Part shown: positions 1,587 through 21,932 of the stretch, piece after piece
Layout of the letters: every line of letters starts with the position of its first letter
Numbering within the stretch: position 1 is the first letter of the stretch
DNA from: a virus
Length of the DNA stretch: 23,961 nt
IMG/VR virus record: IMGVR_UViG_3300045988_094266
Reading direction: 5' to 3' (one strand)
The notes under the pieces: model-generated
Database searches by the model: none
Told to the model about the DNA's origin: nothing
Seen by the model: only the letters and a program-made list of their open reading frames with translations
Made by a program: the position numbers and the translations under genes

Positions 1587-2294
<708 letters not shown>

Positions 2295-2345
2295 AGTTAA
2301 ATTATCTTCCTATTGTTTTATATATAATATAAAGGAGGAATTAAT

Positions 2346-2735: not shown

Positions 2736-2738
2736 TAT

Positions 2739-2770: not shown

Positions 2771-2777
2771 ACTAAAA

Positions 2778-2825: not shown

Positions 2826-2871
2826 ATATAATAATGAAAGGCCAAGGGAATATTTTAAAGGAGGTAAAACT

Positions 2872-3297: not shown

Positions 3298-3309
3298 GGA
3301 GCCGATAAA

Positions 3310-3543: not shown

Positions 3544-3568
3544 TAATTTTCTTAAAGGAGGAACTTAA

Positions 3569-4474: not shown

Positions 4475-4502
4475 TTTAAATTAAAAGGAGAGATTTGGTT
4501 CA

Positions 4503-4925: not shown

Positions 4926-4927
4926 TT

Positions 4928-5542: not shown

Positions 5543-5861
5543 TATTAATGGAGAAGGATGGAAATTATTTTTAACTTCTCCAATTCATCCTATGTTAATT
5601 AGAAGCGATGGACAGTTAACGATAGGAGCTTGTGATAATGAAACTAAAGGTATTTATATTAATGGAGAATTATCTCCATTAATGATGAAAAAAGTTTTAT
5701 GTCATGAGTTAACGCACGCTGCAATGTTTAGTTATGGAATAGAATTGTCTATCGAACAAGAAGAATTACTAGCTGATTTAATTGCTACATATGGCTAGGA
5801 AATAATAAATATGACTAATTCTATTTTTAATCGCTTAAAGAAGGATGGGGAACTCAAGTGA
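5535..5861 (+). CDS. HExxH zinc-metallopeptidase-like small protein (ImmA/IrrE- or SprT-like), 108 aa if TAG 5796 is read through
   Basis: The motif is VLCHELTHAAM. ATG 5535 overlaps the stop of the previous gene. The ORF runs through TAG 5796-5798 to TGA 5859-5861, which lies inside the terminator stem. The C-terminal extension is uncertain. Confidence 0.45.
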
Positions 5862-5877
5862 GTTCCCCATTTTTTTA
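5845..5877. terminator. bidirectional rho-independent terminator between the convergent + and - blocks
   Basis: Perfect 12-bp inverted repeat ATGGGGAACTCA / TGAGTTCCCCAT, flanked by an A-run upstream and a T-run downstream. It sits between the convergent gene ends at 5861 and 5875. Confidence 0.7.
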
Positions 5878-6306
5878 TTCTGATCTAATTTCTAACTCCA
5901 TGGTTTTCTCATAATATTCTTTAGCTTGTCCATTACCACCTAAAGAATGATATAGTTTGTAAAATTCTGTTAGTTGATCATACTAATCTTGAGTCATATA
6001 TCCTTGCTTTATATATATTTTACATAGCTAAACAAGTCTGAATCTATATGAAGCTATAATTAATGTTAAATCTTGTCTTTCTTTATCTTCTATTTTCCGT
6101 ATATATGTTCTTAATTCTTCAATATCTTCTACTATTGGTTTTAATTTTTCGTCAATAAGTTCTACTATATCATTATTTTCTTTTTCCTATAACATTTTTT
6201 TATATGCCATTAACTATTTATATAAGTATCTACAAAAAGCCAACGCTCCGGCGGAAATTAGACCAAAAAGAATTTCTACTATATGTTCTGTAATAAAAGC
6301 AAACAT
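5875..6306 (-). CDS. membrane protein with N-terminal TM and coiled-coil cytoplasmic domain (143 aa, 4 TAG); holin-like?
   Basis: RBS AAGGAGG sits 5 nt before ATG 6306. The N-terminus is MFAFITEHIVEILFGLISAGALAFC. It ends at TAA 5875-5877. It is absent from the ORF track because it is fragmented by TAG. Confidence 0.55.
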
Positions 6307-6378: not shown

Positions 6379-6858
6379 TTACCAAGCACATTGATGCTAT
6401 TTAATATGCGCAAGGCCGATACAAACAGCGTCACTTTCATCCTGTGTGGGTTTTTTCCCATAATTATAAAAAACATAATTCTGAGCATTTTTTTTCTACT
6501 CTGGTCGAGTTTTTCCTTTTATACCCAATAAAGATTTCCATGTTACTGCTAAAATAGAAGAATGGGGAATTTTTTCTTGTTCTAGTAATTCAGAAACTAC
6601 CCCATATACTTCTGCTAAAATCTTAAAAGTCTAAACATTATTAGAAATATTATTCTACTACTATATATCTTCAAAAACTACTTCATCTATATGATACTAT
6701 TCAATAAGATCTTTAATCTTCTATCTTATTTTTACTAATCTAGTATCTATATTATTATCTTCAACAGCAAATTTACCAAAAGTTTTTAACTTATTATCTT
6801 CAAAGACCGCATACCCGGTAATCTTCGAACTCTAATCGAGTGATAATAGATTACTCAT
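6379..6858 (-). CDS. ruvC: RuvC-like Holliday-junction resolvase (159 aa) with 9 TAG codons incl. TAG-TAG-TAG
   Basis: ATG 6858 overlaps the dUTPase TGA (ATGA). Read with TAG = Q, the frame gives MSNLLSLDQSSKITGYAVFEDNKLKTFGKFAV...IDEVVFEDIQQQNN...TWKSLLGIKGKTRPEQKK...QDESDAVCIGLAHIKQHQCAW. This matches the RuvC pattern (G-D-G, ITG-AV, E, K-K-K, DESDAxxIAL-H). It ends at TAA 6379-6381. Confidence 0.75.
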
Positions 6859-7421
6859 TTAGATGTGCTTCCGAATCCACCAAGTCTTTCTCCAGTTGCA
6901 TTATCGTCATCAGTAATTTGATAACTCTTAATAATTCCTTGTCCAATTTTATCTCCACGCTTTAACTGAATAGCAAAAGGAGATAAATTAACAAGCTGGA
7001 AAAAGATCTCTCCTTCATTATCTGGATTATCACAATAATCGGCATCAATAATACCAACGCTATTTCCGCAAATAATCCAATGTTTAAGAGGAGTGGAACT
7101 ACGAACACTTAATTCAAGATATTGACCAGGATTTAAATGACATTTCATTCCTGTTGATACAAGAGTAATCTTAGACTTTAATTCTTTAGTAAGATTAGCC
7201 ATATCATCAAGAGTAAAAGGGCTCACAAATCCATAAAAATCCTTGTCACTATCTTTTTCAAAAATATGGTCTTGAATTTTAGAAGTTAAAAAATTCATTG
7301 GAGGTAGAACTGTATCCTCTGCGACTACGAAATCATAACCTGCGGAATTGGCGGTCGCGCGGGTTGGAATAGGTAGATCAATGTCACTAAAGCGACTTAC
7401 TTTCTCAAAATATACACTCAT
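6855..7421 (-). CDS. dut: dUTPase (188 aa), no TAG codons
   Basis: The motifs are ATANSAGYDF, GIIDADY and RLGGFGSTSK. RBS GGAGG precedes ATG 7421. It ends at TGA 6855-6857. Confidence 0.85.
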   Translation of the reverse strand: MSVYFEKVSRFSDIDLPIPTRATANSAGYDFVVAEDTVLPPMNFLTSKIQDHIFEKDSDKDFYGFVSPFTLDDMANLTKELKSKITLVSTGMKCHLNPGQYLELSVRSSTPLKHWIICGNSVGIIDADYCDNPDNEGEIFFQLVNLSPFAIQLKRGDKIGQGIIKSYQITDDDNATGERLGGFGSTSK

Positions 7422-7422
7422 A

Positions 7423-7665
7423 TTATTCCTCCGTAATGGTAATTGGCATAATGCCTTCTGGTTCTTTCTCGTTGTCAATAGTAATAGTAGCGGTGACGAG
7501 TTGATACTCTTCAACTATTTCACCTTTTTGCTTAATATATTTAGTAGTGTATTTAAATGAAGTTAATTCTCCTACCGAGGTTTTTTCTAACCATTTGCGC
7601 AATCTAAGAGCATCTTCTACAGTAGGCACCCTATAAGTATTTGTAGACTTTAAATTATAAAACAT
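7423..7665 (-). CDS. hypothetical protein (80 aa)
   Basis: ATG 7665 follows RBS GAGGG. It starts right after the TAA of the upstream gene and ends at TAA 7423-7425. Confidence 0.45.
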   Translation of the reverse strand: MFYNLKSTNTYRVPTVEDALRLRKWLEKTSVGELTSFKYTTKYIKQKGEIVEEYQLVTATITIDNEKEPEGIMPITITEE

Positions 7666-7666
7666 A

Positions 7667-7933
7667 TTAAATTCCCTCAACTGTAATTTTACTATTTGAA
7701 TACATATTTTTTTCCAAATCATTTACAAGTTTATTGATTTCTCCTGTTATTGCAAAAGGAGCATGAACTTGTATACTATATATTCCGTTTCCATAAGCAA
7801 TTCCTACAAGGGCTTCAGCTAATCCATTAATATCAGAGCATACTTTCATTTGTTTTTGTAGTCCATCATCAACAACATATACAGCAGATTCCATAGCAAA
7901 TGGATCATAATTTACAATAATAGCATTTGTCAT
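7667..7933 (-). CDS. hypothetical protein (88 aa)
   Basis: Intact ORF. Its ATG overlaps the stop of the upstream gene (ATGA). Confidence 0.45.
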   Translation of the reverse strand: MTNAIIVNYDPFAMESAVYVVDDGLQKQMKVCSDINGLAEALVGIAYGNGIYSIQVHAPFAITGEINKLVNDLEKNMYSNSKITVEGI

Positions 7934-8274
7934 ACCTATATCACCCCTTTTGTATAATCAAAGAACGCATACATATCACATTTCTCTCCATGTAAAATCC
8001 AAATTTCTACAATATTTCCATTTATCTCTATTGCCTTGATTTCTCCAAGTGTCTTAGAAACAGAAATAATCTCGCTTGCCATTTTATTTTTATTTACATC
8101 GTTTTCATAGGTAAATAAAGTAAAATATTTATTATCGTGATTAAGCATCATATAATATCTAGAATTATTGGAATCTAAGAATGTGATAATATTTCTTTTA
8201 GCTTTCTCTAATTCAGCCTTTGTCATTTTTGGAAGGGAGGCATATCCCGCTTGATTTAGCTCGTATAAAGTCAT
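7930..8274 (-). CDS. hypothetical protein (114 aa, 1 TAG at 7936-7938, ends TGA 7930-7932)
   Basis: ORF 7936-8274 continues through TAG for two codons to a TGA that overlaps the next ATG. Confidence 0.45.
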
Positions 8275-8310
8275 ATCTAGTCCTCCATTTCTTTTAATAT
8301 AATATCATAA

Positions 8311-8853
8311 TTATTTTATTCTGTCAACAATAATTGCACCAATAGCATTGCCTATTGTAACTACTATTAAAAATAATATTACATCAATAGAAAGCACACC
8401 TGCGGCCAAAGTGTAACAAAGATCTGCAATACAGTGTTCTCCGCCGAATAATATAAAACCTGTTACGCAGACTGGCACCATATAATCTTTATTTCTTTTA
8501 AACGAGGATACTGCCGAATATATAAATATACCACAAACCATCCCCTTTAAGAAAACTAAATATAGTGGGATTGCGATCTTAGCAGAGACTAGAGATAGAG
8601 CGGCTGCGTGCGGAAAGGCTAAGATCCCGCACGCTCCAATAATATTTCCTATTAAAATAATAAGATTATCTTTTATATCATTTTTGCTCTTGATATAACC
8701 AACTGAACCTGTAAATAATTTAAACTACATATTTAATATAGTCAGTAGGCCAATGGAAAACATAATAGCTCCAACTATACCTCCAACAGATAAGTAGATA
8801 TAGCTAGCTATTGCTATCATTAATCCTCCTAAAATACTCTTTACAAAGTTCAT
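8311..8853 (-). CDS. FNT-family (formate/nitrite transporter-like) polytopic membrane protein, short form (180 aa, 1 TAG), translationally coupled to nrdG
   Basis: ATG 8853 overlaps the NrdG TGA (ATGA). There are multiple TM segments. The motifs LNMQFKLFTGSVGY (like GAELFTGN), FGGEHCIADLCY (like SGFEHSIANMF) and VVTIGNAIGAIIV (like VTIGNIIGG) recall the signature regions of FocA-type channels. It ends at TAA 8311. Confidence 0.5.
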
Positions 8854-9323
8854 TTTAGATAAATTATTTTTTGATTGCGGCTTCCTCTAAGAGGTTCCGT
8901 AATATCTCTTTCATGTTCAATATATGGCCCATCAATTAGCACATCAACTAATTGGAATATATTCTAAATAACTGTATCTGTTGAATTTTTTAAATCTTCA
9001 TACAAGTATCCAGTCCATAAATAAACCTTTAAATCAGGAATTGTTTCTTTTGCGGTTTGTATTACCAAATGAGTTAGAAATGTATTTTCTGGACATAGTG
9101 GCTCGCCGCCCATAATACATAGAGTTCTTTTAACTCCATTTGCAGTAAGCCCTTCTAAGATTGAATTAAGGGTTTCATGGGTAAATTCTTTTCCTCCATT
9201 AAAATCCCAAGTCTCTTGATTGTGGCAACCTTGACATCTATGAGGACATCCCTATGTAAAAAAACTCAAAGACACTCCAGGTGCGGCAGAAAAGTCATTT
9301 TTTATAATACCTGCATACTTCAT
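8850..9323 (-). CDS. nrdG: anaerobic ribonucleotide reductase activating protein NrdG (radical SAM, 157 aa, 2 TAG)
   Basis: ATG 9323 overlaps the NrdD TGA. The motif is GCPHRCQGCHNQETWDF, with a CxxxCxxC 4Fe-4S cluster. It ends at TGA 8850-8852. It is missed by the ORF track because of TAG. Confidence 0.8.
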
Positions 9324-11533
9324 TCCATATACCCCACGTGTTTAATTCTCGCTTGTGTTTCGGCCACTTTTCCTTTATTAAAGGCTGTTTTATAATTTCC
9401 AGTAAGATATCCTGTTACGCGTCTTAACTGTTGAATATCTTCACTACCACACATTGGACACTTATCATTAAATTCACCAGTATAACCACATTTTAAGCAA
9501 GTATCATTAGGGACATTAATTGCAAAATATGGAATATCATGATTCATAGCATAATTAACTAAAGTCTCTAATGCATCAATATTATTCTCCATACCACTAT
9601 CAAGTTCAACATAAGTGATACAACCGGCAGAAGAGTAGCCAGTTAATTGGGATTCAATATCAATCTTATCAAAAGGGGACATTTGTTTCCATACAGGAAC
9701 ATGAATAGAGTTAGTAAAGTATTCTTTATCACTTACATTTGGAATAATTCCGTATTTATTTTTAAATTTAGTCATAGCTGTATAACATAAATTCTCGGCT
9801 GGAGTAAAATATACTCCGAAATTTAGTTGATATTTTTCTTTATACTCAGCACATCTATCTTTGAATAATTGCTCAATACGCTTAGCTAACTTCATTCCCT
9901 CTTCTGTGGTATGGTCTTTACCAATAAGAATTTGTAGAGTTTCAGCTAATCCAAGTTGCCCCATAGCTAAAGTTCCATGTTTTAAAGCGCTTCGAGTAGA
10001 AATTCCATCATATCCAGCCATTAAGCCGTTTTCATACATGAATTTCGCGGATTCCGCGGGTTGAGAACAAATATACTCAAATCTCTCAAGAAGCATATCT
10101 TTAGCATCATTTATAGCTTGATCTAAGAAATCAATAAAAGTTTCAACACAAGAGTCGTCTCCGCTTGGCATGGTTTCCCAATACTTTTTAGCCTCCATAG
10201 CCAATGTTGGCATAATAATTGTTACTGGACAAATATTTCCACGACCATCTTTTTGTTGGCCTAATCCATTAATGTCGAACCCATTCGCAGTTCTACAACC
10301 CATAGTAGAGAAGTATGTCTTAGGATCATTTTTATCATATCCTGCATTTCCGCTCCAATCAACATTGGCATAATTGGGATATAATCTTAAAGCAGTAGAT
10401 TTTAAAGCGATTCTGAATAAATCATAATTGGGATCACCAGGAGCTCGATTAATTCCTTTTGCACATTGAAAGATGCCACAAGGGAAAATAGAAGTTTTGT
10501 GAAGTCTACCAAGTCCCTCAATAGAAACTTCAAGTAAAGCCTTAATTACCATTCTCCCTTCTGGAAGAGTACAAGTACCATAGTTAATAGAAGTAAAAGG
10601 TAATTGATTTCCAGATCGAGACTACAAAGTATTTAAATTATGATACATACCTTCAACTGCTTGATGAGTCTCTCTTTCTGTCATATCTATAGCATATTGA
10701 TACGCATTTGGGTATTCTTTATATATTTCACTATCAATAGGAAGAGTAGAATTTAATCTATCATCCATAGATAAAGTATGTTCAACATAAACAAGTCCAT
10801 CATTAAAATGTTTATAAAAACTCTTTCGTACATATGGAACCATAGTCCAATCCAAGTGAGTAGCAGATACTCCACCAAATTGTTGTAAACTCTGTAGTTG
10901 GAAAATAACTGCAACAAGCTGGAAAGCGGTATTTACAGAACCCGCGGGGCGCACATCAGTTTGTCTAGTATTAAATCCCTTTTCAAGTAAATCATCGAAA
11001 GGAATAGAAAGACAGTTGTGCATACCTACAGCATAAGCATTTAAATCATGAATATAAATTCTATTATTTTCATGATTTACTCGTGATTTATTAGAAACTA
11101 AATAATCAAGAGCATACCTTTTCATTTGTAAATCTGACGCTGCTCCAACTCGTCCGCCAAATGACATTTCATCTACATTGGCATTTTGGTTTTCAATATC
11201 AGAACCTTGAATCTTTGCAGAAAAGGCTTTAATAAAATCATCTTGGCCTTTTCTTGCAATCTCTCTTTTATATCTATATCTAATATATTCTTTGGCTACG
11301 TCTCTACGTTCAGATTTCATAAGATAATCTTCAACCATATCTTGAATTTTTTCAACGGAAACTACATCATCAGATGTTTTTACAGCATACTTAATTTCAT
11401 CTGCAATATCATTTGCTGTATCATCTTCATATAATGCCCCATCAACTTCGATGAAAGCTTTATTTATAGCGTTAATAATACGCTCTTTATCAAATGGTAC
11501 TAGGATACCATTTCTCTTTCTTACTTGAAGCAT
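9320..11533 (-). CDS. nrdD: anaerobic ribonucleoside-triphosphate reductase NrdD (class III, 737 aa; ORFs 10622-11533 and 9320-10552 joined through TAG 10622-10624)
   Basis: N-terminal ATP cone (MLQVRKRNGILVPFDKERIINAINKA). The join reads ...HNLNTL-Q-SRSGNQLPFTSINYGTCTLPEGR. The C-terminus has a Zn ribbon CLKCGY...CPMCG and a glycine-radical RVTGYL motif. It ends at TGA. Confidence 0.9.
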
Positions 11534-11548
11534 ATATAAAACAACTCC

Positions 11549-11980
11549 TTATCTCGTTTTTTGTATATATCTCTACTTTTCCCTTTGTAAAGATTCTAAA
11601 GTCTTTTTGCTTTTTAATATTCCATTACTATCATTATAGTATAAAGAAATGAATGAGTTCAATGCATCACTTGGACCTTGAATCTTTTCGCTTTTTCCTC
11701 CACCAGGCATTGTATTATATCCAACAGAGGGATTGGTAGAATTATAATATGATATATATTGCTTTTCTAACTTATTACTTTCATCTAGCGTAAGATTATT
11801 TTCTAAAATTATATGTTCAAAATTATTCCATCCATATTTCTATATATCATAATAAAAAGATATATTTTCCTTGTATCCATTACCATTTTGCCATCTCTTA
11901 TTTGGATTATCTCCAAATTTGGTTTGTCCAATATATACTTTATTATTTATTTTATTTCTATGCAAATATATACAATACAT
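11549..11980 (-). CDS. free-standing GIY-YIG endonuclease (homing-endonuclease-like, 143 aa, 2 TAG) between gmk and nrdD
   Basis: RBS GAGGTGG precedes ATG 11980. The protein reads MYCIYLHRNKINNKVYIGQTKFGDNPNKRWQNGNGY...ISFYYDIQKYGWNNFEHIILENNLT...YNSTNPSVGYN, matching the GIY-(10)-YIG, R, KYGW.NF and N signature. It ends at TAA 11549-11551, directly upstream of the nrdD RBS. Confidence 0.75.
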
Positions 11981-12035
11981 ATAAATCCACCTCTTTATGC
12001 GAGTATATTATATATAAGAGATAGGGATTATTAAT

Positions 12036-12608
12036 TTAATAAAATTGTCCAAATATAGTATCAACAGCAACATCAATATCTTCTAAGGTGTCGTTTTTAA
12101 GAGTTTTATATTTTATATCATCAAGGAAATGAAAGTCTTCCGTATCTGCCTTATATCTTCTAATAATTTCATTTACATCAGGATTTTCTTCTCTATTTAA
12201 CTATCTTAATAATCTCTATTTACCCGCGGCCCGCACATAAAATACATAAAGCTCAATATTGTCATCTTCTTGTAGACATCTTACTCCTTCAGGGTTAAAG
12301 ACCCCTATATTTATTTTGTCTATTGTTAGACTTTCTCTATCTGTACCATAATGCCAATCATTAAATTCTGTTGCTTCTAGCATATCTCCATTAAGAACTT
12401 TTTTTGTAAATTCATCAATAGATAGAAAATAATAATTAATTCCTTCTTTTTCCCCTTCTCGCGGAGGGCGTGTAGTACAACTGATAATTTCATTGAAATA
12501 AGAAGGATATTTCTCCATAATACTATGGAGAATAGTATCCTTCCCACTTCCTGCTTCACCCATTAACGCTACTATCTTCATCCTCTTCTTCTCCTTGTTT
12601 TCTTTCAC
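12036..12608 (-). CDS. gmk: guanylate kinase-like (d)NMP kinase (about 190 aa; alternative start 12581; 2 TAG codons extend ORF 12216-12608 to TAA 12036)
   Basis: P-loop GEAGSGKDT. The motifs SCTTRPPREGEKEGINYYFLS and EATEFNDWHYGT are present. The C-terminal extension through TAG is RLLRQLNREENPDVNEIIRRYKADTE...NDTLEDIDVAVDTI, which matches the Gmk C-terminal lid/LID-helix pattern. Confidence 0.75.
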
Positions 12609-15600
12609 TTCTTAAAATTAAGTCTGTACCATTGACAATTTCATCAATGTGATAAAGTTGATGACCTCCAGAACTTGCATATTTCTTTGTTACAAATTCA
12701 TCTCCGCGTCTAATTCCCTGCACAACAATCATATTACCTCTATTAAACCATGATTTTTCTATGACCTTTTTTGTGCCATCTTCGTTTCTCTGGAAAGTTT
12801 GCTTATCAAACAACGCGAAGTATTCTTGTCTAAACTTAACCGCTACAACTCCAGTAGTGGTAAGAAGATATACCGTACTTTTTACTTTATTTTTTGCAAT
12901 ACAAGTTCCACAAATCTTATATAGCTTATAGATAGGAATTAATGAAGCACCCTTTTTAAATACCTTATCTACTTGAGGTTCTTCTGGTAAACTAAAGAAG
13001 TCTACAAAACCATACTTACTATTGTTGATATTTGATAATTCATGGTCATGATAATAAAAGCACAAAGATTCCATTTCCCAAGAAGAAATATTACCAGAAG
13101 CATATTTCTTCCAATCTTCCATAAAGATTGTAGTATTTAAGTCATCTAAAATCTTTTCTTTGTTTTCTGCAATCCATGCTCTAAATACATCCATGTAACT
13201 TTGATAAACCTTATCCCAAGATTTTATATCAATATACCAAACTAAATTATCTGTTTCAAGCAGTTTTTCGCAATCAATTTCAACTAAGAAAGTTATTGCT
13301 CTTTCATCTAGCTTATACTTACCTGCATTATATGGGTCTTTACATTCTGCTTTTAAATATCTATTAAATTCGTAAACTCTTTTGGGCATTACAAATTTTT
13401 CATCATCAGGAATGAGATTATATCTCATTAACCCAGGTAGATTTTGTAAAGTAATTCTTTTCTTTTTATCACAGGTAATCCATATATATTGAATCATTGC
13501 TTCCATCCTAGGATGAAACTGATCAAACCCTCCGCCCTTAATTAAAGAAATCATTGCTTGTTTATTTGGATGTACTTTATTAAAGAAATCAATTAAAGAT
13601 ACATAGGGGCGATTATCAACAATGGTTTTAATTAAATCATTGTTTACATTAGATAACCCTTTTAAACCAAACAAGATTTGATTATGCTCAACATCTGGTT
13701 TAAAACCAAAATCAGAATGATTAATGTCAACCAAAGACACTTTTATACCAGCATTACGAATTTCTCCAATGGCTTTAGCAATCTTGGTATAATCTGATTG
13801 TTCTCCTTCTTCTTCATTAATGGCACCGCTATTGACAATAAGATATGCTGTATTCCAATATACTGGATTAAAATGGGTAGCAAGATAAAGAGTTTGCATA
13901 CCAATAAAGCTATAAGCAAGAGCATGGATAATAGAGAAACTATAGCCCATTTGTGGACCGATGCCATAATTCCATACATATTGCCCCAATGCTGGAGATT
14001 TCGCAGAATTTAAAACTTTTTCTCTCAACTCTGGAATTTTGTTCATTTGCTTCTTACCAACTATTTTTCTTGCAGTATTAGCTTCAGCTAACGTAAATCC
14101 GCAAATATTTGGGTCTTGAAGCATAGTCATCATTTGTTCTTGGCTGGGAGGCACACCATAAGAACGTAAGAAATGAGGTTCAAGAATTTTTTGTTCTTCT
14201 TTTGTTAAACCCTACTGATCCATTTCTTTATACCAAAGAGAAATATTATTTTTAAAACGAACATACTTCTCCATTGGAGTTTCTGCACCCTTTTCCGCAG
14301 TCATTAGTCTCATCAATCCATTAGCGTCCGCCATTTCGTGCGGATTTTGAGGCTTAATCTTTTTTGCTGCTTGAGCGCCAACACTAGAATCAAATTGGAA
14401 ACAGCCAAGAACATCTCCATTGGCAAGAGCATCCCACATTTTTTTATCGTCTTGCGGGAGGACAGATGGATGAAGGTATTTATTATAGACTTCACGCAAT
14501 GTTAAATCTTTTTCAATAGCGCCATCTTTTTGCAATAGCTCAATAGTTTGAATAATAATATCCTGTACTGCTGTAAGCAAGAAATCGTACTTGACAGATC
14601 CAGCGGCTTCTTGATCATGAAGATCCCATTGAGTAATTAATGCTCCTTTTGGAGTTCTCATTACCGCGGCTGTATCAAAAATATTTTGATCAAATAAGAT
14701 TACCCCAGAAGCGTGACTCGAACGTTTATTTACTAGTCCTTGAATTCTAGTAATAATATCTAGTAATCCAGGATACTGATTCACAGTATTCACAAAAACT
14801 GAAACAGATTTGCGACCTTTTTCTAGATTACCATTAACCACATCCTCAATGGGCCATAGAAAACCTCTTTCTTGTGGAATAAGAGAACTCATATATTGAG
14901 CCATATCTACATCAATTCCGTCAGGATAATCTTCTGAACGATAGCCTCGACAGGCTGTTAAAATCGCAGATTTAGTTCCTTCTGTGCCAAAAGTGCAAAC
15001 TTGTACTAAGCCAAGCTCTCCTCGTTCTTTTCTAATCTCCGCGAAAATCTTTTGAATCTTTGATGGTGCCAAATCTAGGTCAATATCACCAAGTTCAGTT
15101 CTTTCATCGTTAATATAGCGCCAGAAAGGAAGATCCCATTCAATCGGATCTAGTTGAGTGATTCCAAGAAGATAATGGTTCAAAGCAGCACAAGCTGATC
15201 CTCGCCCTGCACCTACGGTACTTCCGCAATTCCAGAACAAATCTACATAATGTTTTAGAGTATTTGGGTATGCAAACATACAAGTTCCTAGTTTTTCTCC
15301 AATCACTCTCTTTACTCTTGCTTCTTCTTCTAATCTTTCAAGATATCTAGGATCATTAAATAAATCTTTTTTCTGCAAAGCAATAATACATTCATTTACC
15401 CAATATCTTTCTTGAATATTATCGCTCCAAATCAAACTAGATAGAACAGGATATTTATCTTCCCACTGATATGGTACAAACCCTTTTTTATAATCTGTTA
15501 CTTCTACTTCTGGAATTGATTGATGACGTTCAAGAGAATAAAATTCAATTTTATCTTTCATTTCGTTTGAGCATTTAAAAATCCAATCAATTATGCCTTC

Positions 15601-16437
15601 GTCATAGCTCAATCTAAGAAGTTCTCTAGTTTCTTGTTCATCCATCAAATGAGTAAACTCATAGAAACTATCAACCTCTCGTTCTCCACCTTTAGAATTA
15701 AGATACGCTTTATGAACATATCTATCTTCTTTTGTTAAGTAATGCGCATCTGTTCCAATACACATATTTATATTAAAAGCCTCAGAGATACTTAACATTC
15801 TTTTATTTGCGATAATTTGATCTGGATAAGAAGCGGGAGCACATTCAATGTAAAAATCATCTTTACCAAATACATCAATGCAGAATGTCATAAAATCAAC
15901 AATTTGATTATGGTATCTCTGTGCGTTAATTTCATCTTTAATCTCTTCACAATTATGAAGATTTAAAATGGAACTACCAAGTTCTCCACCAATACAAGCA
16001 GTAGTCCCAATAATATGACCCTTAAATCTCTGCATTACATCTTTAAGCTCAGATTTAAGCAAAGGAACGCGTTCCATTCTACGGTCATAATATCCATTCA
16101 TCCAAGCAATAGAGGATAACTCCTTTAGTCCTCTATATCCTTCTTTATCTTTCGCGATTAGGATAAAGTGATAATACTTTTGTCCTAAATCTCTTGTATC
16201 AGTTAAATAAATCTCATTTCCTAATGCAATCGTAAAATCGGGATTTTGCTCCCTAATTTTCTTTGCATATTTATTTACTCTCATATGCGCCGAAAGGCTT
16301 TCGTGGTCTGTGATAGCAATTCCCGTCAATCCGACTTCAATAGCTTTATCAATCAGTGCCTCAGGTTTATTTATACAATCTAGCAAACGCAAGTTACTAA
16401 ACTCCGTATGCGCATGATTGTTAAAGTACATACCCAT
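12556..16437 (-). CDS. dnaE: DNA polymerase III alpha subunit, DnaE family (1293 aa; two ORFs joined through TAG 14212-14214)
   Basis: N-terminal PHP domain MYFNNHAHTEFSNLRLLDC...GLTGIAITDHESL. The joined gene is 3.9 kb in a single frame. RBS GAGAGG precedes ATG 16437. It ends at TGA 12556-12558. Confidence 0.85.
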
Positions 16438-16480
16438 AATTATACCTCTCTTATTTTCTTTATACTTACATTATAGCATA

Positions 16481-17662
16481 TTAATTCTTTAATATCAATG
16501 TAAGTTTTTCAATGGCCCTTGTAACTGTAGTATATATCCATCTAGCGTGTTCAATTTTATCAAATGGAAATGATTCTTCTAATACTAAAACCTTATCCCA
16601 TTGTGAACCTTGCGCTCTATGTCCAGTAATTGCATAACCAAAATTAAACTCAATAGGAAGATCTGGATTTTCTTTATTTCTCCTAATTAAATATTCTTGT
16701 TGAGGAGTAAAAAACTTTTCTCCAGTAGTTAAAGCGGTATAGTCAATACCAACTTCTCTATATGTATCATTTGTTGTTTCAATATCTGCAAATAAAACAG
16801 GAGCAGACACTAACTTTCCAGCGAGGATATAATCAATAGATTCCATTCTTTTAGTTTTAATATATCCAACAGAGCCATTTATGAGTGGATTTTCATGTTT
16901 TTCAGAGCAAGTATCCCAACAGTTCCTCAAACAAATAATCTTATCATCTATTTCTGGCTCAAATCCTCTACCTAAATCATCTCTAATATAAGAATTAATA
17001 TCATGCCTACTTTTATTGGTAGATACAAGAATCTAGTCTGCCCAAAAATACATTCCATCGCACAGATCATTTTTCTTAAAAACTTGAGCGTCATGACCGC
17101 TAAAAGGAGATAATCTCTTTCCTTCTCTAATATCCATGCTAAGGCAAATAATATCACTTTCTTTTGCTTGACGCATTACTTCATCAAGAAAAATATGCGG
17201 ATTATCCAAAATATGATTATCTTGTTTCTTATCTATTGGAGGAATCTGAAAAGGATCTCCGCAAGCTATTACATAGATATTATGACTTAAAAGCAAATCC
17301 CACATATCTTTAGGAAGCATACTTACTTCATCTACAACAATTACTCTATAAGGCTTTTCAAGAACAGTCCTTGGTTTATAGAAAAATTTACCATTTGGCA
17401 TTTGCTTACTGTAATATAACAATTTATGCGCGGTCATAGCATTATGGCAACCTTTTTCTCGCAATACCTCTGAGGCTTTTCCTGTAAAAGTAATATATGC
17501 AACTTCTTCTTCTGGATCTACCTCAAGAGCTGCTATAATAAAATTAATCAAGGTACTTTTTCCAGTACCTGCGTAACCCGCTATTACAGTATAGGGCTCG
17601 TTGTGATTATATCTATCTATTGCAATGCGCAATCCTTCCTCTTGTTTACGAGTTAATTCCAT
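16481..17662 (-). CDS. SF1B helicase, RecD/Dda-like (about 393 aa; ORFs joined through TAG 17033-17035; alternative start 17677)
   Basis: Walker A AGYAGTGKST. Motifs VIVVDEVSML and GDPFQIPP are present. The C-terminal half has GYAITGHRAQGSQWDKVLV (helicase motif V/VI). RBS GAGG precedes ATG 17662. It ends at TAA 16481. Confidence 0.75.
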
Positions 17663-17906
17663 TTTTCCAAACCTCATAACTAATATTTTCTTGAACTCTA
17701 TAACCCTTTTTCCTTAAATAATCAGCAAATTCATCAGAAGTCATCCAATTAAAAACATATCCTTCAAAAATAGGATGATCTTCTAAAAATGCACCATAAT
17801 CATCTTCTATTCTATCCATAATATCATGTATATCCATATAACCTATTATATACTTATCTATTTGAATAGAATCTAAAAATTTTATAGTTTGTTTTAATTC
17901 TTCCAT
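17646..17906 (-). CDS. hypothetical acidic protein (86 aa)
   Basis: Intact ORF, ending TAA, that overlaps the helicase start. Confidence 0.4.
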   Translation of the reverse strand: MEELKQTIKFLDSIQIDKYIIGYMDIHDIMDRIEDDYGAFLEDHPIFEGYVFNWMTSDEFADYLRKKGYRVQENISYEVWKNGINS

Positions 17907-17943
17907 ATTTTACCTCAAAAAATAGTAAAACCAATTTTAGTTT

Positions 17944-17990
17944 CTGCGGACGGTCGTCTAGGTTCCGGCCAGCCCGCAGATATTTTATTT
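17944..17990. terminator. isolated GC-rich hairpin CTGCGG...CCGCAG followed by TATTTTATTT (only GC island in this stretch)
   Basis: Imperfect stem of about 13 bp. The T-run follows on the + strand and an A-run precedes on the - strand. It lies between - strand genes 17990-18793 and 17646-17906. Confidence 0.45.
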
Positions 17991-18793
17991 TAACTTACAA
18001 AATAATTATATGCGATTATCGCATTATTTTGTCGTACTGTATAACTTCCAGAACCGCATCTTTCATAGCATTTCGCGAACGCTAAAGCAGCATCAGTTAT
18101 ACTTGTCATATTTAGAAAATCTTCGTAATCAAACCCTCTCTTATAGGCATGACCGAATGTATTAAACTCATATTCAATAGTATTTTCCAAATAATTGCAT
18201 TGCTCTTCTAATGAGGCTCCCCAAACCTCAGAATACGCCTTATTCCATTGACACATTCCATAATATGAAGAATTACCTAATTCATATTGAATGTTCAAGG
18301 TATTACCACCAACTTCAGTCATTATATTACCAAGTATTCCAGCACAAACTTGATTATTATAACCTAGGTTTTTGAAATAGCTCCATATATATGTTGCTAC
18401 CGGGTACTCTTTCTCCTTTTGATGCCAGTGTTCCATGAGGTTATCATATACGTTTTGATAGGATTGTCTTAATTCATTAGCTTTATCATATTCATTTACG
18501 GCTAACTCAATAACATCATGGTTTTCAGAATAACCTAATTGCCTAGCGGCATCAGCCATTTGATGTGCGGCATTCATGTTAGAAATTTGTTCCGCAATAA
18601 GCTCAATCAATGTATCTAAATCATTATAGGTATAACTTGTATTGCTGTTATACTGAACTGAATATGCTGATGCAACAGAAATAAATGGGCTGTTGCAACT
18701 ACACATTATAGATAATAAAATGATTAAACTTAGTATAATACTCATAAAACGTCTCATTGTGATTGTTTCCTCCTTTAGTAAGAGGTTGCGCAA
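17990..18793 (-). CDS. secreted lipoprotein with phage-tail-lysozyme-like peptidoglycan hydrolase domain (267 aa, no TAG)
   Basis: Signal peptide/lipobox MRRFMSIILSLIILLSIMCSC. The motifs QVCAGILGNIMTEVGG, YGMCQWNKAY and AFAKCYERCGSGSY...RQNNAIIAYNYF resemble the ICGMLGNM / GLVQWT / NYERAG signature of phage tail lysozyme family domains. It ends at TAA. Confidence 0.55.
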   Translation of the reverse strand: MRNLLLKEETITMRRFMSIILSLIILLSIMCSCNSPFISVASAYSVQYNSNTSYTYNDLDTLIELIAEQISNMNAAHQMADAARQLGYSENHDVIELAVNEYDKANELRQSYQNVYDNLMEHWHQKEKEYPVATYIWSYFKNLGYNNQVCAGILGNIMTEVGGNTLNIQYELGNSSYYGMCQWNKAYSEVWGASLEEQCNYLENTIEYEFNTFGHAYKRGFDYEDFLNMTSITDAALAFAKCYERCGSGSYTVRQNNAIIAYNYFVS

Positions 18794-18796
18794 TCA

Positions 18797-20548
18797 TTAA
18801 AAGTAATACTTCTATCTACTTATAATTTCATAATCTGTAATAATAATTTGTGGTGTCACACTACCGAAGTATCTATTTACTTCTGGTTTACCAATCAAAT
18901 TTATACTCACGCAACCTAATTCACTAGATAAATCTTCTAGCTCCTCTTCGCTTGATTTAAACTTGATGCAAGTAACTCCATTTGGTAATTGAATCTTCAA
19001 AGTAGGATTCTTGTCTCGTGACATAAGACTAATCATGTCATTTGTTACTGCAACATTTTCTACCGCAATTAGCGGTTCGTCGATATTCTATCCCCAAAGA
19101 TACTTAGAATTGCCTAGTTCTAATATATCTTTAGAATTAATATCTGACATAGAGTAAATAAAATCTACCTTATAGCTTGGCGAAAATTCTATATCTTTTA
19201 ATTGATTGTCTGACCATGTAATAAAATCTTCAAAATCTTTTTCATAAATGCCAAAGCCAAAAGCATTTGCGTGCCCCTCAGCTAAAAAGACTAAATTTGA
19301 ATCTCTTACAAATTGTCTAAAATCATTTAATTTAGACTTTTCGTATCCTCTAGCTGATCCTTCCCAAGCATCTTGTCCATTGTTTACAGTCTTTGATAGG
19401 AGAATAACGGGGCGCTTATACTTACTCATTAATTCATTAGCAATTAAACCAGTAATACCTCTATCAACCTACATATCTTCTAGTTTAATTACTAAAAGTT
19501 TATGCTATAATAGATTTTTTTCTTGAATAATATTCTCTATTTGTTCAACTTCGGCATCTCTAGTTCTAGTCTAACGATTCTTAACATTAGTGCAAACTCT
19601 TAATGCTTGCTCTAATCTAGTTTCCTCTTGCCCTTTACATCCTCGTTTAGTAGAAGGAATAAGATCATATGCTTTCCATTCAAGCATACTTTCAAATAAA
19701 ATCTACTTTTCATCTTGAGTACCCATACGAGTAATGGCATTAACAAGAGGAACAATATAAAACGCTACTCCAATAGGAGATAAATCTCCTCTGCCTAACT
19801 AATAAGCATTTTTATCAGCCATACCTTTAATAAAAGGATTGCGGAGACTTGACCTCTGTAGCCCCTATTGAATAAGATAATGAGTTTCAAAATCTCTAAT
19901 ATCCATCATATCTCCTATAAGACCGGTGGCTACAATATCAAGGTAATTGTCCGCATAGGCAGTTCCGCAAATACTATCCATATACTAACACAATTTATAA
20001 ACTACTCCTACACCAGATAACGATTTTGTTGGATAATCGCATAACTGATTATTAACAACACAGGCGTATTCAGATATTTTATCAGCTAAGTGATGGTCTA
20101 TAACTAATACATCAATTCCGCGATTAGCCAATTCTTCATGCTCTTGATAGTCGTTAGAGCTTGAATCCGGTGCAATAACAAGAGAAATATTATCGGGGAT
20201 TAATTCTGGTTTTATTCCATGAATTTTACCAGAATGGAAGTTATAAACAAACTTGTTAATTGCAGAGGGAAACTGCGCATGAAGATAATTTAGCAATAAT
20301 GCAGAAGAGGTGTAACCATCGCAGTCGCTATCTACCTAGACATAAATATAAGAGTCGTCTTTTAAAATGTGCTTAATAATTAGCTTAGCAGCGCTTTCAA
20401 TATTATTAAGAAGTAAGGGAGATAAATTATCTTTTTCTGATACTGTTAAATAATGCTATATATCACCATATTTAATACCTCTGTTAACTAATACCTACTT
20501 TAAAGCACTATAATCCTAATTTCTTGGGTTAATTAATGAATATTCCAA
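18797..20548 (-). CDS. RecJ-like DHH-family single-strand DNA exonuclease (583 aa) with 13 in-frame TAG codons; start codon uncertain (TTG 20548?)
   Basis: Four ORF-track fragments (20296, 19429, 19036 and the unlisted 20548-20297 stretch) share one frame when TAG is read as sense. The motifs are QVDSDCDGYTSSALLLNYL (DHH motif I), VLVIDHH, and a C-terminal OB-like domain. There is no in-frame ATG upstream of motif I. TTG follows AAGGAG and sits directly after the TAA of the upstream gene. It ends at TAA 18797-18799. Confidence 0.7.
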
Positions 20549-20551
20549 TCT

Positions 20552-20836
20552 TTAATCACTCTCCTTATTATGTGATAATCCAGTTCCTTTGCAAGCTCTA
20601 CATTTTATATAGTCATTAAGATCGTTTGGATCTGGCCTATCATCTTCCGCGCAAGATCTAGATCTTAAAACATGACCAGTTCCGTTACAGTACTCACATG
20701 CTTGATTAATTTCTCTAAGTTTCTCTAAACTGTCAAAATAGGGTTGTATTCTCTTATTATAATCATCTGCTAATTTTCCTATTTCTTTTTCTATTACTCT
20801 AATAGCAGGTACTAGATTTAAAATCTCTTTACTCAT
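20552..20836 (-). CDS. small protein with two DnaJ-type CxxCxGxG zinc-finger repeats (94 aa)
   Basis: CEYCNGTGHV and CRACKGTGLS motifs follow an N-terminal coiled coil. There are no TAG codons. It ends at TAA. Confidence 0.5.
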   Translation of the reverse strand: MSKEILNLVPAIRVIEKEIGKLADDYNKRIQPYFDSLEKLREINQACEYCNGTGHVLRSRSCAEDDRPDPNDLNDYIKCRACKGTGLSHNKESD

Positions 20837-21932
20837 AAGGAATTATCCTTTCATTTAGTAACTCTTCAAAAATCTGCGGTCCCTTGTCTATAGGACTTGC
20901 TTTATATGGCAAAATCATTCGTTTGTCAAAGATAGCAGATATGCGTACATTCTTACTATATTTGTTATATATATGAATTAACTTTGCTTTCAATCTCTTA
21001 AATTCATCATCGCTAATTTCGACAAATTGTCTATCAAAAGCAACTATGATTTCATTAACTCCTAAAGATTTAAGTAAATCTATATGATAACTAGATATAC
21101 TACTTCCACAACAAGCTACAGATATATCATTATCGTACCCATAGTAAGACTGATACATAAGACAACTCTTTTCAGATTCAAATATAATTGCAGCTTTTAC
21201 TTTTCTTATATTCTCTTTGCTATGGTTTAAATTATATAAATTCATACTTAAAGGATGATTATATAATTGTCTGTTCACCATAAGAGGTCTATATTTTCCA
21301 TATCTTTCTGCATCTTCAGAAGATAATGTTCTTCCCCTAATTCCTACTAATCTATTATTAATATCAAAGTGAGGAATTGTTATTTGTCCTCCTCCCGGAT
21401 AATACCCAATAAAATTTCTTTTACTAACCTCGGGTAAGATTCCTTCTGCTTCCCATCCAGCAATTCTAGGATAAGAAAATCGAGTAAGAATAATCGGATT
21501 ATATTCCTTCAAGCAAATAGGCTGTTTAGGTTTTGGTAACTGAATATTATGTCTTTTAAAGATATCCCAATCTTCTAATTCTTTTTCTTCATCTTCTAGT
21601 TCTATTCCATCAAAACCAAAATATCCAGCTATATAATCCATAGCATTATATAGTTCCCACTTTTTACCTTCTTGCTTTTTTTTAACCTTTATACATAAAT
21701 CAAATATATCAAAAGTAGGATCTATACATCCAGTATAACATCTAAAAAGTTTTGTATTTTCGTAATAATATAACTTTCTTGATCCCTCTCCTGGAAGATT
21801 ATGACATATAGTTTGGGAGATGAGCCCACCATCTACATATTCAGGCTCACCGCCCCATGCTTCAATTAAATCATAAATTTGTTCTAACTCTAATTTTCCT
21901 TTTAGTTCATCTTTATCATAATAGCGTGACAT
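20829..21932 (-). CDS. DNA primase (CHC2-type zinc finger + TOPRIM), 367 aa, no TAG codons
   Basis: Zinc-finger region CHNLPGEG...FRCYTGC. TOPRIM-like region AAIIFESEKSCLM...VACCGSSIS...VAFDRQ. It sits downstream of the dnaB-like gene. Confidence 0.7.
   Translation of the reverse strand: MSRYYDKDELKGKLELEQIYDLIEAWGGEPEYVDGGLISQTICHNLPGEGSRKLYYYENTKLFRCYTGCIDPTFDIFDLCIKVKKKQEGKKWELYNAMDYIAGYFGFDGIELEDEEKELEDWDIFKRHNIQLPKPKQPICLKEYNPIILTRFSYPRIAGWEAEGILPEVSKRNFIGYYPGGGQITIPHFDINNRLVGIRGRTLSSEDAERYGKYRPLMVNRQLYNHPLSMNLYNLNHSKENIRKVKAAIIFESEKSCLMYQSYYGYDNDISVACCGSSISSYHIDLLKSLGVNEIIVAFDRQFVEISDDEFKRLKAKLIHIYNKYSKNVRISAIFDKRMILPYKASPIDKGPQIFEELLNERIIPYE

Follow-up and report, generated by a model that had tools for sequence, protein, structure and literature searches.

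Strongly uneven use of a glutamine-decoded TAG codon among neighbouring genes of an SPbeta-like gut phage

Gene content of the locus

The whole stretch of DNA analysed here (the window, 23,961 nt) contains 30 genes when TAA and TGA are taken as the sole stops. Convergent late or accessory genes on the plus strand and replication genes on the minus strand are separated by a GC-rich hairpin with an 11-bp stem (5845 to 5870); a promoter scan gave 104 hits versus 99.8 expected. On the plus strand, a tail-fibre-like protein of 212 amino acids (248 to 886; PHROG 26419, tail fibre) closes the late module, and 3 of its 7 glutamine-like codons (TAG, CAA, or CAG) are TAG. Further along lie a small serine recombinase of the resolvase/invertase type (1671 to 2294, 207 aa; Pfam Resolvase, E = 1e-30) with TAG at 6 of 15 such codons (TAG/CAA/CAG, 6/6/3), a holin (2346 to 2735, 129 aa; PHROG 13712, E = 1e-32), and gene 2872 (2872 to 3297, 141 aa), a glutamine-rich protein of unknown function with 9 of 17 (9/7/1).

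The minus-strand array ends with a gene for a 143-aa protein of unknown function (5875 to 6306; PHROG 4105/4257) with an N-terminal hydrophobic stretch recognized by eye; TAG makes up 4 of its 9 glutamine-like codons, and relatives of groups A and C have 3 to 4. Beside it is a RuvC-like Holliday-junction resolvase (6379 to 6858, 159 aa; Pfam RuvC, E = 2.8e-8), whose ATG overlaps the stop codon of the dUTPase gene (ATGA). Its in-frame count is 9/2/2, and orthologues carry 7 to 10 TAG in groups A, B, and C and 4 in the relatives L032 and L034. The dUTPase (6855 to 7421, 188 aa from its ATG; Pfam dUTPase, E = 3.5e-13), which adjoins and overlaps RuvC on its upstream side, has none (0/4/2), and its orthologues have 2 TAG in 4780 codons.

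The anaerobic ribonucleotide reductase NrdD (9320 to 11533, 737 aa), 41% identical to the annotated class III large subunit of phage Phass-1, has a count of 1/26/3. Its sole TAG (codon 304, 10622 to 10624) is private, since both group-A relatives and all B and C relatives have CAA or CAG there. A free-standing GIY-YIG endonuclease (11549 to 11980, 143 aa; Pfam GIY-YIG; TAG 2 of 8) is missing from a 97 to 99% identical contig when the latter is aligned to the window. The DnaE-type DNA polymerase III alpha (12556 to 16437, 1293 aa), found by tblastn to be 41% identical to SPbeta YorL and Phass-1, has a count of 1/41/10; its sole TAG (codon 742, 14212 to 14214) is CAG in 98 to 99% identical relatives, and group C DnaE has 0 TAG in 995 glutamine codons. 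The SF1 (UvrD/PIF1-like) helicase (16481 to 17677, 398 aa; Pfam AAA_30 and UvrD_C_2) also has a single TAG (1/9/1; codon 215, 17033 to 17035).

Upstream, a Phage_lysozyme2-domain protein (17990 to 18757; PF18013, E = 7e-18), with a signal-peptide or lipobox-like N-terminus by eye, has no TAG at 12 glutamine codons (0/11/1). As a candidate for the endolysin of the lineage it was rejected: this role is filled in the relatives by a protein with lysozyme2, Amidase_2, and SLH domains, encoded at a place that the window does not cover and rich in TAG (10 of 23). The RecJ-like DHH exonuclease (18797 to 20548, 583 aa; Pfam DHH, DHHA1, and RecJ_OB) follows the Zn-finger gene at a distance of 3 nt and has TAG at 13 of 28 glutamine-like codons (13/12/3), tightly flanked by the lysozyme2 gene and the TAG-free Zn-finger and primase genes. 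It carries 13 TAG in groups A and B, 3 to 4 in C, and 0 to 1 in D, and 7 of the 13 sites are CAA or CAG in group C. The small Zn-finger (CxxC) protein (20552 to 20836, 94 aa; 0/2/0) and the primase-like protein (20829 to 21932, 367 aa; 0 of 10, 0/6/4) follow, the latter with a weak match (26%) to a Phass-1 ORF, no match in Pfam, and 4 TAG in 8785 codons of its orthologues. The array also includes a DnaB-type replicative helicase (22128 to 23681, 517 aa; Pfam DnaB and DnaB_C) with TAG at 2 of 21.

Genetic code and two classes of genes

Standard-code ORF calling breaks DnaE into 12556 to 14154 and 14212 to 16437 and NrdD into 9320 to 10552 and 10622 to 11533, and these and other genes are recovered at full length once only TAA and TGA count as stops. 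The 30 genes end in TAA (21) or TGA (9), never in TAG, and Pfam confirmed RuvC, dUTPase, NrdG, GIY-YIG, the guanylate-kinase-like protein, SF1 helicase, Phage_lysozyme2, DHH/DHHA1/RecJ_OB, DnaB, and Resolvase. TAG is decoded as glutamine (genetic code 15), because mainly CAA and CAG stand at TAG positions in orthologues (315 Gln, with Glu as runner-up at 89). Searches of the window and of 49.5 kb of the closest contig revealed no suppressor tRNA. Relatives do encode a tRNA(CUA), which has G73 and a mismatch at 1:72 and lies on the DnaE strand, ca. 41 kb upstream of that gene; it closely resembles a Phass-1 suppressor, and its carriers include group B contigs with 13 TAG in RecJ and 7 in RuvC. 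We regard the window as part of an SPbeta-like siphophage of gut Firmicutes of ca. 100 to 150 kb, with a genome GC content of 32% and its own tRNA(CUA).

All the per-gene counts named in the original prediction, which held that TAG usage differs strongly between neighbouring genes, were reproduced exactly, including the excess of TAG over CAA and CAG combined in RuvC (9 versus 4). The unevenness exceeds chance among the window genes both per codon (chi2 = 162, df = 29, permutation p<1e-5) and per glutamine-like codon (chi2 = 81, permutation p = 2e-4), so that gene length is accounted for and TAG frequency per glutamine codon is not uniform. It holds within positions 6379 to 21932 (p = 4e-4) and recurs in a relative with 90% DnaE identity (75 genes in 58 kb; chi2 = 165, p = 5e-5).

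As a neutral benchmark, the TAG share was predicted from the TTR/CTR first-position pair of leucine together with the A/G ratio in lysine and glutamate codons, which gave 0.44 to 0.52, with TAG/(TAG+CAG) at ca. 0.8 to 0.9. TAG-rich genes have values of 0.49 and 0.82, so no selection for TAG is needed, and the genes that had been called saturated, although counted correctly, are at their neutral share. TAG-poor genes, with 0.07 and 0.29, are about seven-fold below neutral expectation, and most of the few TAGs they have are private or polymorphic. The same contrast was found in groups A, B, and C. The TAG-permissive class comprises the tail fibre, holin, endolysin, RuvC resolvase, RecJ, GIY-YIG nucleases, serine recombinase, and some genes of unknown function; the TAG-avoiding class comprises DnaE, NrdD, primase, gyrase, ligase, dUTPase, DnaB, and others. 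In relatives, TAG occupies 10/23 glutamine-like codons of the endolysin, 11/19 of a TM+GIY-YIG protein, 13/29 of RecJ, and 7/12 of RuvC, versus 0/14 in GyrB, 0/26 in GyrA, 0/4 in ligase, 0/10 in primase, 0/31 in NrdD, and 1/48 in DnaE. Across 24 sequences, DnaE has four TAG columns, each limited to one group and three of them polymorphic inside the 98 to 99% identical A group, whereas 9 of 15 RuvC TAG columns are common to at least two groups, a signature of purifying selection on TAG in the avoiding class. Membership is not fixed by function: RecJ is neutral in groups A and B and TAG-poor in C (3 to 4 of ca. 26).

Relation to known recoded phages

TAG avoidance in some genes and free use in others has already been described for recoded phages. 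In the code-15 gut phages of Borges et al. (bioRxiv 10.1101/2021.08.26.457843), early genes are standard, late and lysis genes recoded, and the replication machinery variable, and a homing endonuclease within an early gene is strongly recoded. The present lineage resembles them in its low GC, encoded suppressor tRNA, in-frame stops in a fraction of the genes, recoded structural and lysis genes, variable use in replication genes, a strongly recoded nuclease gene amid early ones, and relatives ranging from standard to heavily recoded. It differs in that recoded genes are not bound to blocks but stand singly among TAG-free genes in a gapless array, that RuvC, a family not singled out in that study, is the most consistently recoded gene of the region, and that TAG-rich genes sit at the neutral share with no bias toward TAG.

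Phass-1 of the proposed Phassvirus group (PMC10607447), a 136-kb gut siphophage in which 41 of 147 ORFs carry TAG read as glutamine, shares the DnaE-type polymerase, NrdD/NrdG, RecJ, and RuvC, the convergent structural and replication arrays, and tRNA-Sup-CTA genes, one of them nearly identical to the tRNA(CUA) of this lineage. Its DnaE, helicase, primase, and NrdD have no TAG, and its RecJ has 4. However, its DnaE is merely 38 to 41% identical, its GC content is 44.5% (versus 32% here), its 36 tRNAs include two suppressors that immediately precede NrdD, and its RuvC is without TAG.

Reports on dual coding in crAss-like phages and on the Mgcod annotation tool (PMC7886860; bioRxiv 10.1101/2022.06.29.495998) describe genomes divided into contiguous blocks. 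Here too one genome mixes standard-readable and stop-reassigned parts but, unlike in those blocks, both kinds of gene alternate on one strand at the scale of single genes, so that RuvC, RecJ, and the endolysin would be annotated wrongly under a block model.

What may keep the two classes apart

The suggestion that TAG-free genes were recently acquired from standard-code phages, or TAG-rich ones from a fully recoded phage, is contradicted by several lines of evidence, and we give it almost no credence. Some mosaicism exists, since NrdD is only 85% identical to the group-A relatives, to which most genes are 96 to 99% identical, and to the closest contig, where its neighbours reach 96 to 100%, and since in group B the SF1 helicase has 69% identity versus 88 to 97% for its neighbours; these divergent segments, however, are not the TAG-rich genes. 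Relative codon usage outside glutamine is nearly equal in both classes (r = 0.98), as is four-fold third-position composition, gene order is kept in 35 loci, the same orthologous sites alternate between TAG and CAA/CAG, and RecJ with its 13 TAG lies in one 94 to 99% identical A/B block with the TAG-free primase and lysozyme2. That TAG-rich genes are simply fast-evolving or decaying, gathering any mutation including TAG, is very unlikely as well. A published time series did find more mutations in recoded genes than in genes without in-frame TAG, and RuvC, the 143-aa protein, and RecJ are 62 to 71% identical to group C versus 79 to 84% for DnaE and DnaB. Over 18 window genes, though, divergence and TAG share are uncorrelated (Spearman rho = -0.05, p = 0.86), and TAG is scarce in such fast-evolving genes as the SF1 helicase (52% identity) and hyp88 (35%). 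RuvC and RecJ retain full-length Pfam domain matches, have no TAA or TGA within 159 and 583 codons at 32% GC, and conserve TAG sites between lineages.

It seems improbable that TAG is actively favoured in nuclease and lysis genes as a safety lock, by which low-level transcription in a lysogen, or expression brought on too soon by host defences, would yield only truncated, harmless peptides, although Borges et al. (bioRxiv 10.1101/2021.08.26.457843) propose the same for lysis genes and prophages. RuvC is slightly above neutral in every recoded group (0.58 to 0.69 versus 0.44 to 0.49) and has the most TAGs among the genes compared in the least recoded relatives (L032 and L034); 6 of the 13 RecJ TAG sites are non-glutamine codons in group C, several of them two to three nucleotide changes away; and an M78/ImmA-like peptidase, like the kinship with SPbeta, is a hint of a temperate lifestyle. 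Yet within a lineage the excess in RuvC falls short of significance (9/13 versus p = 0.5), lineages share ancestry, the pooled TAG-rich class is exactly neutral, and first TAGs do not lie obviously earlier than their spacing would give; neither an integrase nor an integrated copy was found, and two MAG contigs are whole-phage-sized (148 kb). A cost of suppression efficiency with no role for timing, in which the tRNA always competes with release factor 1 and each TAG cuts full-length yield, is a possibility to be taken seriously, if still an unlikely one. TAG would then be purged from long, glutamine-rich, or abundant proteins and tolerated in low-copy nucleases and recombinases. In line with this, depletion is strongest in the longest, most glutamine-rich genes (DnaE 1/52, NrdD 1/30), replication genes of groups A and B tolerate one or two TAGs as a graded cost predicts, the TAG-rich enzymes are catalytic proteins of which few copies are plausibly needed, and Phass-1 has late yet TAG-poor genes, namely a probable major capsid protein identified from position only (345 aa; 0 TAG, 15 CAG, 0 CAA), a 538-aa virion protein (0/14), and the portal (1/34). 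Against it, TAG is also absent from short genes that have no evident reason to be made in quantity (primase, dUTPase, the Zn-finger gene, and several small ORFs), virion tail proteins (13/24, 6/14, and 8/19) and the 3150-aa Phass-1 tape measure (110/249) are at the neutral share, and RecJ would be nearly unmakeable unless suppression is efficient.

The two classes most likely arise from a need for early translation combined with a TAG gate, an account we hold to be somewhat better than an even proposition; early and late are here assigned by gene function. In permissive genes, TAG would be a third, fully synonymous glutamine codon that drifts under AT-biased mutation until it makes up, at equilibrium, about half of these codons, and in avoiding genes purifying selection would purge new TAGs, most likely because their products have to be made at a time when TAG still acts as a stop in the cell, or is read poorly. 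Such a phase would fall early in infection and possibly also in prophage expression, and permissive products would be needed only after the suppressor tRNA has built up. The depletion of the TAG-poor class, the private or polymorphic nature of its TAGs, and the published model agree with the expression timing that had been suggested, but its strict form fails for this lineage because DnaE, NrdD, DnaB, and the SF1 helicase (one or two TAGs each) need suppression; together with NrdG and the guanylate-kinase-like gene, they carry one to three. Suppression must thus already be working when replication proteins are made, and the gate cannot be all-or-none.

Some observations run counter to a gate: the holin has TAG at just 2 of 7 codons, RuvC of Phass-1, a distant code-15 relative, has 0 of 8, and internal promoters may lie within upstream genes.

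TAG-dependent gating of functions such as recombination and lysis nonetheless fits the arrangement best, since TAG-rich genes sit between TAG-free neighbours without intergenic space. In T4 (PMC2988022), late genes on early or middle polycistronic transcripts are delayed by hairpins that sequester the ribosome-binding site, among them lysozyme e, GIY-YIG and other homing endonucleases, and gene 49 endonuclease VII (by its cited reference). The logic and nearly the same gene classes recur here, as a functional analogy and not as family membership, but the device would differ: start sites of RuvC, RecJ, and the 143-aa protein have no unusual predicted RNA structure (z-scores 0.0 to +1.3), so that the in-frame TAG is the only visible brake. 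Because permissive genes share operon-like arrays with avoiding ones, as in the RuvC/dUTPase overlap and the 3 nt between RecJ and the Zn-finger gene, in-frame TAGs may act gene by gene and independently of transcription as a translational gate for late-acting or hazardous enzymes.

Gene content of the window and distribution of TAG

When only TAA and TGA were allowed to terminate translation, the window (GC content of ~32%) resolved into 30 closely packed genes forming two convergent arrays. The plus-strand array (248-5861) comprises a tail-fibre-like gene, a small serine recombinase, a holin, gene 2872, and accessory genes. The minus-strand replication array (23681-5875) is transcribed starting from DnaB, the unnamed gene hyp73, primase, a Zn-finger gene, and RecJ, continues with lysozyme2 (a lipoprotein with a Phage_lysozyme2 domain), the unnamed hyp86, an SF1 helicase, DnaE, a guanylate-kinase-like gene, a GIY-YIG gene, NrdD, and NrdG, and ends with an FNT-like channel, three small genes, dUTPase, RuvC, and hyp143 (an unnamed 143-aa gene, 5875-6306). 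Gene names were mostly backed by Pfam and PHROGs; for DnaE the name comes from tblastn matches among phage DNA polymerase III alpha genes, for NrdD from 41% identity with the annotated enzyme of Phass-1 (a gut phage that reads TAG as Gln), and for primase from a weak Phass-1 match only. Standard-code ORF calling fragmented the long genes, splitting DnaE into 12556-14154 and 14212-16437 and NrdD into 9320-10552 and 10622-11533; DnaE, NrdD, RecJ, and RuvC are full length solely under TAG read-through. A GC-rich hairpin with an 11-bp stem (5845-5870), exactly between the convergent arrays, is the sole convincing terminator-like site in 19 kb. Apart from this hairpin, the promoter and terminator scan of the window gave results no better than shuffled sequence, and transcription units could not be defined from it.

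We collected 35 related loci in IMG/VR, from contigs of mostly 75 to 148 kb, and grouped them by DnaE identity to the window: A (98 to 99%, including the closest contig), B (90%), C (78%, 19 loci), and D (57%). DnaE itself shares 41% identity with both SPbeta YorL and its Phass-1 counterpart. Searched over its full length for near-identity, the window had no match among INPHARED phages, and Rfam gave no hit at gathering thresholds in 104 kb (the window and loci L102, L181, L098, and L103). A scan of genome contigs matched only whole-phage-sized MAG contigs (Oscillospiraceae, Eubacterium), in which no integration site was found, and which we take as a host hint only.

In-frame TAG occurs 67 times, in 20 of the 30 genes. 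Our per-gene recount agreed in every case with the counts of the original prediction, including RuvC, where TAG was said to outnumber CAA and CAG combined (9 versus 4). Its claim of uneven use also held with gene length considered: multinomial permutation over the 30 genes rejected uniformity both per codon (chi2 162, p<1e-5) and per Gln-like codon, i.e., TAG, CAA, and CAG (chi2 81, p=2e-4), and heterogeneity persisted within 6379-21932 alone (p=4e-4). The pattern is not explained by gene length. Only a subset of the genes bears TAG, spread more unevenly than by chance, in the window (p=2e-4) and among 75 genes of a relative (p=5e-5). Structural and lysis genes of the window use it (3 of 7 Gln-like codons in the tail-fibre-like gene, 2/7 in the holin). 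DnaE, NrdD, DnaB, and the SF1 helicase of the window have one or two TAGs each. Primase, GyrA/B, and ligase, as well as DnaE in groups C and D, are readable in the standard code.

This pattern is gene-specific, not block-wise. In the window, the ATG of RuvC (9 TAGs) overlaps the stop of dUTPase (none) as ATGA, and RecJ begins 3 nt past the Zn-finger gene and is separated from lysozyme2 by 3 to 39 nt, according to which lysozyme2 start is used. A merged map of one group B genome (60.5 kb) has 75 same-strand genes, with heterogeneous TAG use (p=5e-5). Its TAG-rich islands are the endolysin (lysozyme2, Amidase_2, and SLH domains; 10/23), a membrane-anchored GIY-YIG protein (11/19), RecJ (13/29), RuvC (7/12), and two genes without assigned function (6/12 and 6/17). 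Near-zero neighbours are GyrB, GyrA, ligase, the PhoH-like gene, primase, and NrdD (all 0), the RNA-repair genes (0 to 1), and DnaE (1/48).

Several other features of these arrays deserve mention. Perfect 55-nt inverted repeats (1-55 and 203-257) flank a 147-nt segment that has the opposite orientation in the 97 to 99% identical contig. Each repeat arm spans the RBS and first codons (M-E-C) of a tail-fibre-like gene, the small serine recombinase (1671-2294) is found at a distance of 1.4 kb, and almost nothing in that contig corresponds to 569-1558 of the window. The arrangement resembles an invertible switch of the Gin/Hin type, serving alternative tail fibres. Outside the window, locus L098 (IMGVR_UViG_3300045988_068993, 39815-43844) has a putative reverse transcriptase (a 405-aa ORF, by eye) behind a small basic protein and a tail-fibre-like gene of 598 aa, resembling a diversity-generating retroelement. 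On the late strand of the window, 3569-4925 holds two conserved genes, one encoding a Cys-rich protein of 301 aa with CCC motifs (PHROG 16490), the other a protein of 140 aa (PHROG 20016). They have GC contents of 0.41 and 0.39 versus ~0.32, are CAG-rich, and are almost TAG-free (1/26 and 0/6; 2 TAGs among 124 Gln codons in 25 orthologues), in contrast with the TAG-rich genes upstream in the same array; they may be expressed without suppressor, e.g., in a lysogen.

In the replication array, the GIY-YIG gene (11549-11980) is missing from the closest contig, and within the region considered (10190-12035) the adjacent 3' part of NrdD (10190-11550) has just 85% identity versus 97 to 99% in the flanking DNA, the pattern expected of a homing endonuclease insertion with a co-conversion tract. 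Directly 3' of NrdD-NrdG lies a formate/nitrite-transporter-like membrane protein (8311-8853; Pfam E=3e-15). Formate can serve class III ribonucleotide reductases as reductant, and a phage formate channel at this position is suggestive. Midway along the replication array is the Phage_lysozyme2-domain protein (17990-18793), whose N-terminus resembles a signal peptide or lipobox; its gene has no TAG, and it is separate from the endolysin of the lineage. Of that 468-aa endolysin, the closest contig keeps an ORF for only the C-terminal 140 aa (L102, 3400-4440, versus L103, 7662-9068); the gene is full in groups B and C.

Decoding of TAG and the suppressor tRNA

Orthologous codons indicate that TAG means Gln in the lineage of the window. 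At the positions of its TAGs, group C and D orthologues have CAA (169), CAG (146), or TAG (138), the next most common being Glu (89). The 30 genes terminate with TAA (21) or TGA (9), never TAG, and cases resembling a TAG stop numbered 0 of 83 in A and B orthologues and 1 of 374 in C orthologues. The peptide proteomics reported for crAss-like phages includes Gln at TAG (PMC9523058). The nucleotide 3' of TAG did not differ from that 3' of CAA/CAG (p=0.27), so a read-through context is not apparent.

With ARAGORN, no tRNA was detected in the window or in 49.5 kb of the closest contig, which together cover about half of the genome of the window phage. Walking upstream in relatives turned up a tRNA(CUA) in group B contigs, which bear the same TAG pattern, and at the related loci L189, L190, L191, and L253. 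In group B it lies on the same strand as DnaE, ~41 kb upstream, in a small tRNA cluster. Its discriminator base is G73, its 1:72 pair is mismatched, and its CCA end is encoded. One Phass-1 suppressor is closely similar to it. Two suppressors of that phage lie immediately upstream of NrdD. The cluster adjoins putative tRNA-repair/maturation ORFs (RNA ligase, Thg1-like, nucleotidyltransferase, and kinase/phosphatase, by eye). The ends of many independent contigs fall 4.6 to 7.9 kb upstream of GyrB, suggestive of a genome terminus or of a repeat that breaks assembly. Both of these observations come from loci L181 and L188 (contig _075249, ~18.8-34 kb), L102, L115-L117, L174, and L184.

Neutral expectation and spread of TAG across the clade

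As a neutral yardstick, we modelled TAG versus CAG on the synonymous Leu pair TTG versus CTG, and CAA versus CAG on how Lys and Glu codons divide between A and G endings. The ratios of the window itself predict a TAG share of Gln-like codons of 0.44 to 0.52 and a TAG/(TAG+CAG) of ~0.8 to 0.9. The eight TAG-rich genes had values of 0.49 and 0.82, and the other 22 genes 0.07 and 0.29. The TAG-rich genes, RecJ and RuvC among them, are therefore at the neutral share and not enriched for TAG, and the class under selection is the TAG-poor one. Genes described in the original prediction as saturated are indeed TAG-rich, but their level is merely neutral. The same split relative to neutrality was found in groups A, B, and C, with a RuvC share of 0.58 to 0.69 in each, and DnaE in group C had no TAG among 995 Gln codons. 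Tail proteins in the late module of the closest contig are likewise at the neutral share (13/24, 6/14, and 8/19).

TAG use increases from D to C to A and B. Group D has none or few, and RuvC, with 4 in L032 and L034, leads the genes compared in those relatives. In group C, RuvC has 8 to 10, hyp143 3 (6 in one locus), and RecJ 3 to 4, with essentially none in DnaE, DnaB, and helicase. In groups A and B, RecJ gains ten further TAGs and sporadic ones appear in replication genes; as RecJ shows, TAG class can switch within one gene. As judged from their distribution among relatives, the few TAGs of the avoiding genes are mostly recent. The four TAG columns of DnaE are all limited to one group, three of them polymorphic inside the 98 to 99% identical A group, and the TAGs of DnaE and NrdD in the window are CAG or CAA even in the closest relatives. 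In RuvC, 9 of 15 TAG columns are common to more than one group. This rise matches the published path in which recoding begins in late genes and then spreads (bioRxiv 10.1101/2021.08.26.457843), and agrees with the in situ accumulation of TAG observed in a published time series. Among the six replication-module homologues identified in Phass-1, TAG occurs in RecJ alone (4/22) and a TAG-rich RuvC was not found (0/8), counts that cover only homologue-anchored or PHROG-annotated genes, since a simple caller takes some wrong-strand ORFs at a GC content of 44.5%.

Proposed timing of translation and its alternatives

Mosaic acquisition from standard-code relatives, offered in the original prediction, is not supported as the cause of uneven TAG use. 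TAG-rich and TAG-poor genes are alike in relative codon usage outside Gln (r=0.98) and in four-fold third-position composition, gene order is kept across related loci, and TAG swaps with CAA/CAG at orthologous sites. RecJ with its 13 TAGs lies within a block 94 to 99% identical between A and B, along with the TAG-free primase and lysozyme2. Relaxed constraint is not supported either: the domain matches of RuvC and RecJ are full-length with no TAA or TGA inside. The idea that TAG-rich genes are merely fast-evolving was ruled out (TAG share versus protein divergence, rho=-0.05). Because TAG-rich genes overlap or abut TAG-free neighbours, differing promoters are improbable as the cause; internal promoters are possible, as the promoter scan was uninformative. 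The chief competing explanation is that suppression carries a graded efficiency cost, which would set TAG use. In its favour are the tolerance of TAGs by replication genes in groups A and B and the TAG-poor probable capsid and portal genes of Phass-1; it is weakened by small genes that are TAG-free and virion proteins that are TAG-rich.

The best-supported reading follows the published model in which early genes use the standard code and late genes are recoded: the avoiding genes would be translated before, or without, sufficient suppressor and so shun TAG, while genes required late need not shun it, and their TAGs would act as a translational gate. TAG-permissive genes inside the replication array include the endolysin, the Holliday-junction resolvase, and GIY-YIG nucleases. 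In T4, similar kinds of genes are held translationally silent on early polycistronic transcripts by RBS hairpins (PMC2988022), whereas here no such hairpin is predicted: 70-nt windows at gene starts had no fold beyond shuffles (z=0.71 for RuvC, 1.34 for RecJ, and 0.03 for hyp143). It is conceivable, if somewhat short of probable, that in this clade in-frame TAG serves as a gene-by-gene translational time lock on DNA- and wall-cutting enzymes (Holliday-junction resolvase, RecJ, GIY-YIG nucleases, and endolysin) in early/middle operons, in the role that RBS hairpins have in T4, with a locked set that varies between sister lineages, as in RecJ with 3 to 4 TAGs in one and 13 in another.

Function-linked uneven use of a reassigned stop has already been described, in crAss-like, Lak, and "gemstone" phage clades, and the related Firmicutes group of Phass-1 is also published (PMC10607447). 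The phenomenon is thus known, and the window represents a further lineage of unusually fine grain, adding a consistently TAG-rich RuvC, a lineage-specific TAG-rich RecJ, and TAG-rich genes at the neutral share. Uneven use of the reassigned stop is the main argument that recoded phages schedule expression by code change, and to this the window adds a Firmicutes, SPbeta-like lineage with the contrast at single-gene resolution within tight arrays. A block-based dual-code annotation would break the genes in question. The neutral yardstick, in which the Leu TTR/CTR ratio predicts TAG/CAG, separates TAG-tolerating genes from those selected against TAG, and the avoiding set provides a guess, from sequence only, at which products appear before suppression sets in. 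For testing translational gating directly, RuvC, RecJ, and the endolysin are well suited.
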